Source: Pseudomonas phage Pa_AttikonH10 | Length of the DNA stretch: 64,000 nt | Strand: one strand, 5' to 3' | Sequence record: PQ741806.1 | Shown: in pieces, positions 58,721 to 59,209 of the stretch | How positions within the stretch are numbered: position 1 is the stretch's first letter | How the letters are laid out: every line of letters starts with the position of its first letter | Notes under the pieces: generated by a model | What the model was told of the DNA's origin: nothing | What the model saw: only the letters and a program-made list of their open reading frames with translations | Database searches by the model: none | Position numbers and translations under genes: made by a program

Positions 58721-59209
58721 TTAAACCGATGAATCTATCCACGGTGGATAAACAACCACAATCTGGTTAGGCATGTGATTAGACCAATCTTCAATGATAG
58801 TTCTAACATCAGAGAAATCTAATCCACCATTAGCACACCCTAGAGGTGGTATGATAATTTTCCAATCTGGATGAATACAGTCTTCTTCATTTTCCGCAGA
58901 ATCCGATACGTTCTCCATCATCCACTCTAGACCACGTTCAATGAAACTAATTTGAGATGGGTTCCGCCAGTTATCCTTAGTGGGAAACATCATGAAACGT
59001 TTACCATCGGATGCTTTGTAAATAACCGGATTACCAATAGTAATAATTCTCTTTTTGCAATCGTGTTTGTATCTTTCAAAAAGTTCAGGATACTTTTCTT
59101 TAAACGATTTAGCTAAACCAGCGCCCATGACGCCAACAACATTAACAGTGATTAGATAAAGATCACCAGGTACATTGAATATATCTTTACCTATAATAAA
59201 TTCAGCCAT
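58721..59209 (-). CDS. putative macro-domain (ADP-ribose binding/hydrolase-like) protein
   Basis: 162 aa; N-terminal GDLYLITVNVVGVMGAGLAKSFKEKYPE (a glycine-rich ADP-ribose-binding-loop pattern) and distal IIIPPLGCANGGLDFSDVRTII (a macro-domain SIAFPAISTGxYGYP-like segment). Confidence 0.5.
   Translation of the reverse strand: MAEFIIGKDIFNVPGDLYLITVNVVGVMGAGLAKSFKEKYPELFERYKHDCKKRIITIGNPVIYKASDGKRFMMFPTKDNWRNPSQISFIERGLEWMMENVSDSAENEEDCIHPDWKIIIPPLGCANGGLDFSDVRTIIEDWSNHMPNQIVVVYPPWIDSSV

Follow-up and report, generated by a model that had tools for sequence, protein, structure and literature searches.

The closest described counterpart of the protein examined here is AdfM, the anti-DarT factor macro of chimalliviruses, whose type protein is phiKZ gp104 (Morgan et al. 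Cell Rep 2026, PMC13309987). In vitro, purified AdfM strips ADP-ribose from an oligonucleotide that a Pseudomonas aeruginosa DarT2 had modified on the second T of TNTC, an activity that the N23A substitution lowers, and in E. coli it fully rescues DarT2 toxicity (PMC13309987). GFP fusions of AdfM from phiKZ, PhiPA3 and Asesino, a phage of Erwinia, are found in the phage nucleus; import proceeds via PicA, and protection depends on this import and on the concentrations that DarT2 and AdfM reach in the nucleus relative to each other (PMC13309987). Three Cas13-selected AdfM deletions plate normally on PAO1 and on most clinical strains, with a 3-6 log loss on DarTG2 hosts, and in infected DarTG2 cells lacking AdfM the DNA is far more ADP-ribosylated (PMC13309987). 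The resulting DarT2 block falls mainly on DNA packaging, with empty capsids, a 4-fold drop in replication and unchanged transcription (PMC13309987). The same protein had served to define the PicA pathway, and a surface patch at aa 77-95 was found to let it into the phiKZ nucleus in a phage-specific manner that requires PicA (Morgan et al. PNAS 2024). In Gerovac et al. (Nature 2025) the protein appears among the non-core ones, as a “macro domain protein”. From the published work on AdfM it is clear that the phage nucleus shields its contents incompletely and has to be backed by a repair enzyme brought in from outside, and that phages take over the enzymatic half of a bacterial antitoxin for use in counter-defence.

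Outside phages, two solved macrodomain enzymes serve for comparison. Human TARG1 (also OARD1 or C6orf130; 4J5S) belongs, like gp104, to the lysine-type macrodomain clade and is its second-best solved relative, although it is eukaryotic and only about 20% identical. TARG1 is mainly a protein-glutamate de-ADP-ribosylase that is also active on DNA. The nearer relative is DarG2 (T. aquaticus and M. tuberculosis; 5M31, 5M3E, 5M3I, 7OMU), which shares with gp104 the macro fold (TM 0.81-0.86, 30-34% identity), the residues of the ADP-ribose pocket, the lysine of the FPTK motif and the reaction itself, removal of ADP-ribose from thymidine in single-stranded DNA (PMC13309987). In contrast to DarG2, gp104 is phage-encoded, lacks the C-terminal DarT-binding domain and an adjacent darT, and carries a short acidic insertion at about aa 103-116 along with the nuclear-import surface patch.

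Other phage proteins reach a similar end by different means. AdfN (T4 30.3 and other phage NADAR proteins) is, like gp104, an orphan, enzyme-only copy of a DarG antitoxin that erases DarT-made ADP-ribosylation of DNA; it differs in having an unrelated fold, NADAR, and countering DarT1 (guanine), whereas gp104 has a macro fold and counters DarT2 (thymine) (Johannesman et al. 2025). AdfA (RB69/T4) and AdfB (ICP1 gp145) are also phage anti-DarT factors; AdfB binds the DarT toxin directly and, unlike gp104, acts non-enzymatically, and neither protein is described as a homologue of macro domains.

Here, we examine gene 104 in the window, a stretch of 64,000 nucleotides from Pseudomonas phage Pa_AttikonH10 (PQ741806.1), and propose that its product is AdfM, the orphan DarG2-like macrodomain ADP-ribosyl glycohydrolase, as published. 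We give this reading a probability of roughly 0.94, and none of our results speaks against it.

Identity of the gene 104 product

Gene 104 and the features around it are listed in Table 1. The 4 kb around the gene match the 20 P. aeruginosa Phikzvirus genomes listed, phiKZ itself (NC_004629) being one of them, at 99.5-99.7% identity and in reverse orientation. At the protein level, gp104 is 100% identical to PHIKZ104 (NP_803670.1), which RefSeq names “macro domain-containing protein”, and to copies in about 30 other Phikzvirus isolates. Its translation also equals residues 13-174 of the His-tagged gp104 construct printed by Morgan et al. (Cell Rep 2026, PMC13309987), with 162 of 162 positions identical; the product of the window ORF and the AdfM of that study are the same protein, with no difference between them. 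The identity, the fold and the anti-DarT2 function of gp104 are already known for an identical protein, and the import region defined by chimeras is present, the sequence being identical.

Table 1 Features in and around gene 104, with positions in the window
Feature	Residues	Position	Strand	Remarks
Gene 104 CDS (PHIKZ104 / gp104 = AdfM)	1-162	58721..59209	minus	From the ORF listing; ATG start, 162 aa, stop codon included, single macro domain
Ribosome-binding site AAGGAG		59218..59223	minus	Read from the sequence; 8 nt upstream of the gene 104 ATG
Macro-domain loop 1, NVVGVMGAGLAKSF	23-36	59102..59143	minus	N23, G26, G29, G31, A33
F75-P76-T77-K78 codons	75-78	58976..58987	minus	K78 is the predicted catalytic lysine
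Nuclear-import surface patch	77-95	58925..58981	minus	From the literature; phiKZ gp104 / PhiPA3 gp108 chimeras (Morgan et al. PNAS 2024)
Diphosphate-binding loop 2, IIIPPLGCANGGLDF	118-132	58814..58858	minus	Aligns with ADP-ribose-binding G117-G121 of TaqDarG
Intrinsic terminator		58689..58716	minus	Directly after the gene 104 stop codon; 9-bp GC-rich stem, then UUUAU (UUUAUGUCGU)
Perfect 14-bp hairpin, 103-104 intergenic		59235..59270	minus	Stem CUAAUGAGAAGGUC / GAUCUUCUCAUUAG; 8-nt loop UAUGUUUU; no U-tail
AT-rich box TATATTAC		58656..58663	minus	About 60 nt upstream of gene 105 (early by RNA-seq)
Box TATATTAC		59844..59851	minus	Just upstream of gene 102.1
PHIKZ105		58151..58597	minus	148 aa, early; adjoins AdfM
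ORF at PHIKZ107.1		56715..57242	minus	Readable as 175 aa

Macro fold and place among the DarG enzymes

A sequence-only reading of this DNA had named the product a putative macro-domain protein and pointed to a Pfam search and a structural comparison as checks. Both bear it out. The Pfam Macro profile (PF01661) scores 30.1 bits against a gathering score of 22 (E = 4.9e-7), with aa 21-138 covering positions 3-117 of the 118 in the profile. A structure predicted by AlphaFold2 from an alignment of 47 homologues (pLDDT 95.1, pTM 0.90) has the alternating strands and helices of the macro-domain fold, which is built in three layers (alpha/beta/alpha) around a central mixed beta sheet, and Foldseek returned 200 macro-domain matches to it in the PDB at E <= 0.001. 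The best of these was DarG of M. tuberculosis (E 4e-16, TM 0.81/0.86), followed by DarG of T. aquaticus and the Thermosipho DarTG, then by TARG1 (1.5e-8, TM about 0.74) and then by the others.

Sequence comparison gave the same order. When gp104 was searched against all PDB sequences, the only significant matches were DarG of M. tuberculosis (5M3I, E 9e-25), DarG of T. aquaticus (5M31, 3e-19) and the Thermosipho DarTG fusion (7OMU, 9e-18). We then collected 132 homologues of gp104, and a profile was built from the 47 that were aligned, which span 33-100% identity. Against the PDB this profile found 5m3i at 1e-50, 5m31 at 8e-50 and 7omu at 2e-42, with TARG1/C6orf130 at 2e-17 and Poa1p and other macro domains at about 1e-8 or worse. 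By both the profile and Foldseek, gp104 is nearer to DarG and TARG1 than to MacroD, Poa1p or the viral macro domains. Side matches in the Pfam and PDB searches to DUF2192, a retinaldehyde-binding protein and MscL were below threshold and were set aside as noise.

We draw a distinction between the enzymatic half of DarG and the complete antitoxin. The DarG models of NCBIfam (NF048014, E = 4.9e-40) and PADLOC (4.4e-39) both recognise gp104, yet its score of 137.8 bits against NF048014 lies below the equivalog cut-off of 250 because half of DarG is missing: the match spans positions 7-148 of the 338 in the model, and the protein ends at aa 162 with no DarT-binding C-terminal domain in the DarG model match. 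Nor is there a partner close by. The seven flanking ORFs (gp101-gp107.1) have no Pfam match at E <= 0.01 and hold no DarT toxin or ADP-ribosyltransferase domain; six of them match only PHROGs of unknown function and gp105 matches none, and the RefSeq annotation around gene 104 includes no toxin gene. With the macro half of DarG alone and no toxin gene nearby, gp104 is an orphan antitoxin-like enzyme and not a member of a toxin-antitoxin pair.

The names that gp104 has acquired elsewhere would suggest another activity. It matches PHROG 335, which is labelled 'phosphatase', its copies in other GenBank records are called “phosphatase” or “Appr-1-p processing”, and degradation of immune signals has been proposed for jumbo-phage Macro domains in general (Iyer et al. 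2021). Under such a view gp104 would be a small-molecule enzyme, either an ADP-ribose-1''-phosphate phosphatase or a degrader of ADPr-derived (Thoeris-type) signals. We consider this highly improbable. Database labels are passed on by inheritance and do not amount to tests; by every measure the DNA-specific DarG macrodomains come out nearest, and in the profile search Appr-1-p phosphatases of the Poa1p type trail them by some 40 orders of magnitude. Moreover, gp104 is concentrated with the DNA in the phage nucleus, whereas soluble signals act in the cytoplasm, and its measured phenotype is specific to DarTG2 (PMC13309987).

Active-site residues

The two motifs to which the sequence-only reading had drawn attention, NVVGVMGAGLAKSF from aa 23 and IIIPPLGCANGGLDF from aa 118, are present as it described them, and their resemblance to the ADP-ribose-binding loops of macro domains is real. 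Together they comprise the N-x(2)-G-x(2)-G-x-G pattern and the glycine-rich diphosphate loop that characterise this pocket. All five loop 1 residues in Table 1 are invariant among the 47 aligned homologues, as are P121, G124, G128 and L130 of loop 2. Between the loops, T77 and K78 are likewise invariant and F75 and P76 nearly so, and the four align with the FPTK of the M. tuberculosis and T. aquaticus DarG proteins.

By combining a HMMER alignment with the published list of TaqDarG residues (Jankevicius et al. 2016), we mapped the binding and catalytic positions onto gp104. N22 of TaqDarG corresponds to N23, T79 to T77, K80 to K78, W83 to W81 (nearly invariant in the 47 homologues), G117 to G124, N120 to N127 and G121 to G128. 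In TaqDarG, K80 is the catalytic lysine and the counterpart of the catalytic lysine of TARG1, and the K80A substitution inactivates the enzyme (Jankevicius et al. 2016). By this equivalence, K78 is most probably the catalytic residue of gp104.

Two positions depart from the T. aquaticus enzyme. A30 of gp104 stands in place of K29, and A126 in place of G119, where most homologues retain a glycine (consensus PPLGCGxGGL in the 47-sequence alignment). Since K29E and G119E lower the activity of TaqDarG (Jankevicius et al. 2016), the kinetics of gp104 may differ from those of DarG.

Distribution among phages

Searching with tblastn, we found matches to gp104 in 275 of 50,697 phage records. Identity is 95-100% in phiKZ-like phages, about 60-65% in PhiPA3, 201phi2-1 and their relatives, about 41% in phiEco32-like podophages of E. 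coli, 32-38% in jumbo phages of Erwinia, Serratia, Salmonella and Klebsiella, and about 28-32% in the Thermus phage phiMa, a cyanophage and actinophages. Nearly all metagenomic homologues are stand-alone proteins of 140-175 aa. The spread over jumbo phages agrees with the 'about half of chimalliviruses' of Morgan et al. (PMC13309987); in an earlier survey, 56% of jumbo phages carried a Macro domain (Iyer et al. 2021).

Transcription of gene 104 and its flanking signals

The timing of expression was taken from normalised reads at 5, 10, 15, 20 and 30 min after infection (Fig. 3b source data of Gerovac et al. Nature 2025). With a control antisense oligonucleotide (ASO), reads of PHIKZ104 were 1019, 2021, 5312, 6412 and 11395 in the first replicate and 1369, 1751, 5669, 7405 and 6752 in the second, an increase of about 5- to 11-fold from 5 to 30 min. 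When ChmA was knocked down there was no induction (1038, 1177, 785, 615 and 572). This is the behaviour of middle or late genes transcribed by the non-virion polymerase. The two genes downstream have the early pattern of a steady fall in the control, from 2241 through 1479, 551 and 345 to 270 for PHIKZ105 and from 9810 through 6854, 1905 and 1142 to 1080 for PHIKZ106, and the upstream PHIKZ103 peaks at 15 min (1545, 2170, 2561, 2287 and 1485). With PHIKZ104 rising and PHIKZ105 and PHIKZ106 falling, gene 104 marks a boundary: an early block begins after it, and it is not itself early.

Hairpins lie on both sides of the gene. The terminator that follows its stop codon fits the conserved phiKZ motif BCCYCCCCHWWDGGGRRGGBYTTATKYYGT (Putzeys 2024). 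As RNA it folds at -19.7 kcal/mol (z = -4.3). On the upstream side, an 81-nt RNA that contains the perfect hairpin between genes 103 and 104 folds at -26 kcal/mol (z = -3.6) and is more stable than all 200 of its 200 shuffles. The core of phiKZ late promoters is TATG, and this tetranucleotide is included in the loop UAUGUUUU. The upstream hairpin may be the terminator of gene 103, or it may be part of the promoter or leader of gene 104; as the two genes differ in their RNA time course, the gene 104 promoter probably lies in this intergenic hairpin region. An RNA profile unlike that of either neighbour, together with hairpins on both sides, makes gene 104 look like a self-contained unit. As a separate observation, the TTATG tail of the phiKZ terminator motif itself includes the late-promoter core.

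Promoter-like sequence was less helpful. The box TATATTAC, which we take to be the early-promoter core of phiKZ, occurs nine times in the window against 6.0 expected, and 17 of 100 shuffles reach nine. Since the 8-mer is not enriched in the window it is uninformative alone, which is why published RNA-seq was used for timing instead. A scan of the window for sigma-70-type promoters stayed at background (17 found, 16.3 expected), as it would because phiKZ does not rely on the host polymerase (Putzeys 2024).

Could gp104 instead be expressed early and neutralise host ADP-ribosylation as infection begins, ahead of nucleus formation? The gene directly borders a run of small genes whose RNA-seq pattern is early (105, 106 onward), there is an AT-rich TATATTAC box just past its end, and the sequence-only reading had placed it in an early-gene block on the strength of this neighbourhood, which is how it came to be put in the wrong temporal class. 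The box, however, sits past the gene 104 terminator and serves gene 105. The reads of PHIKZ104 rise from 5 to 30 min, or stay flat under ChmA knockdown, during the interval in which those of PHIKZ105 and PHIKZ106 fall. Late expression of AdfM is also stated by Morgan et al. (PMC13309987), who cite Ceyssens 2014, and the DarT2 block that AdfM relieves is mainly on packaging, a further reason why we find action at the onset of infection scarcely credible.

Function of AdfM in the phage nucleus

In light of gp104 being AdfM, what would its course of action be? In the mechanism that we favour, bacterial DarT2 toxins put ADP-ribose on thymidine at TNTC sites when the DNA is single-stranded. AdfM is produced from the middle to the late phase, is recognised through its surface patch at aa 77-95 and enters the phage nucleus with the help of PicA. 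Inside, the pocket that its N23 loop makes up with the G124-G128 loop is expected to hold the ADP-ribose, and the ribose-thymine bond would be cut, most probably via K78 in the manner of DarG K80 and the TARG1 lysine. Imported AdfM could in this way clear the marks left by the small amount of DarT2 that passes the shell, and clearing of ADP-ribose would keep replication, and especially genome packaging, running. Because AdfM has no DarT-binding domain, it would act only by erasing the modification and not by sequestering the toxin.

Of the roles put forward by the sequence-only reading, countering DarT-type DNA ADP-ribosylation has held up, through the placement of gp104 nearest to DarG and the published experiments (PMC13309987), whereas action on ADPr-derived immune signals and control of the phage's own ADP-ribosyltransferases are unsupported. 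That the fold and the leading function were named correctly from the letters alone gives the present check its value, which is one of calibration.

The last of these roles belongs to a broader alternative, in which gp104 erases ADP-ribose from protein or RNA that has been modified by ADP-ribosyltransferases (ARTs) of the phage itself or by other host systems, either replacing or adding to a role against DarT2. TARG1, which comes second among the solved relatives, takes ADP-ribose off protein glutamate; more than 40% of jumbo phages have ARTs (Iyer et al. 2021); and ASO knockdown of gp104 in PAO1, which is DarTG-free, slightly lowered the ChmA signal, with plaque and colony counts unchanged (Gerovac et al. 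Nature 2025). Against this, an ADP-ribosyltransferase domain is absent from the seven neighbouring ORFs, infection of PAO1 and of seven further clinical strains without DarTG proceeds normally for AdfM deletion mutants (PMC13309987), and DarG2-type macrodomains are exclusively DNA-acting according to Morgan et al. (PMC13309987). We judge this alternative very unlikely, and both it and the small-molecule activity weighed above would be minor additional roles at most.

Our preferred reading of gp104 as an anti-DarT2 enzyme leaves some room for a second job alongside, such as de-ADP-ribosylation of RNA or protein within the phage nucleus or the countering of another, as yet undescribed, ADP-ribosylating defence. 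One hint is the drop in ChmA on knockdown in a DarTG-free host. Another comes from a selection with a gp104-nuclease fusion, which gave only escapers mutated at the nuclease target site, taken by its authors to mean that losing gp104 import is costlier than a target-site mutation (Morgan et al. PNAS 2024). On these hints we would call a second job unlikely, if somewhat less so than the broader alternative just described.

Neighbouring genes

Scans of the whole window for tRNAs and Rfam families gave no matches. Downstream of gene 104, PHIKZ105 has no Pfam or PHROG match; it is lost together with AdfM in some of the mutants and has been called non-essential (PMC13309987). Further along, RefSeq annotates only the 99-aa PHIKZ107.1 within the longer ORF listed in Table 1. 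PHROG 33672, a profile of 146 positions, covers aa 30-175 of the longer form (E = 3e-101), and the RefSeq start codon of PHIKZ107.1 is probably too far downstream. Read as 175 aa, the ORF would share about 11 nt with the end of gene 107.
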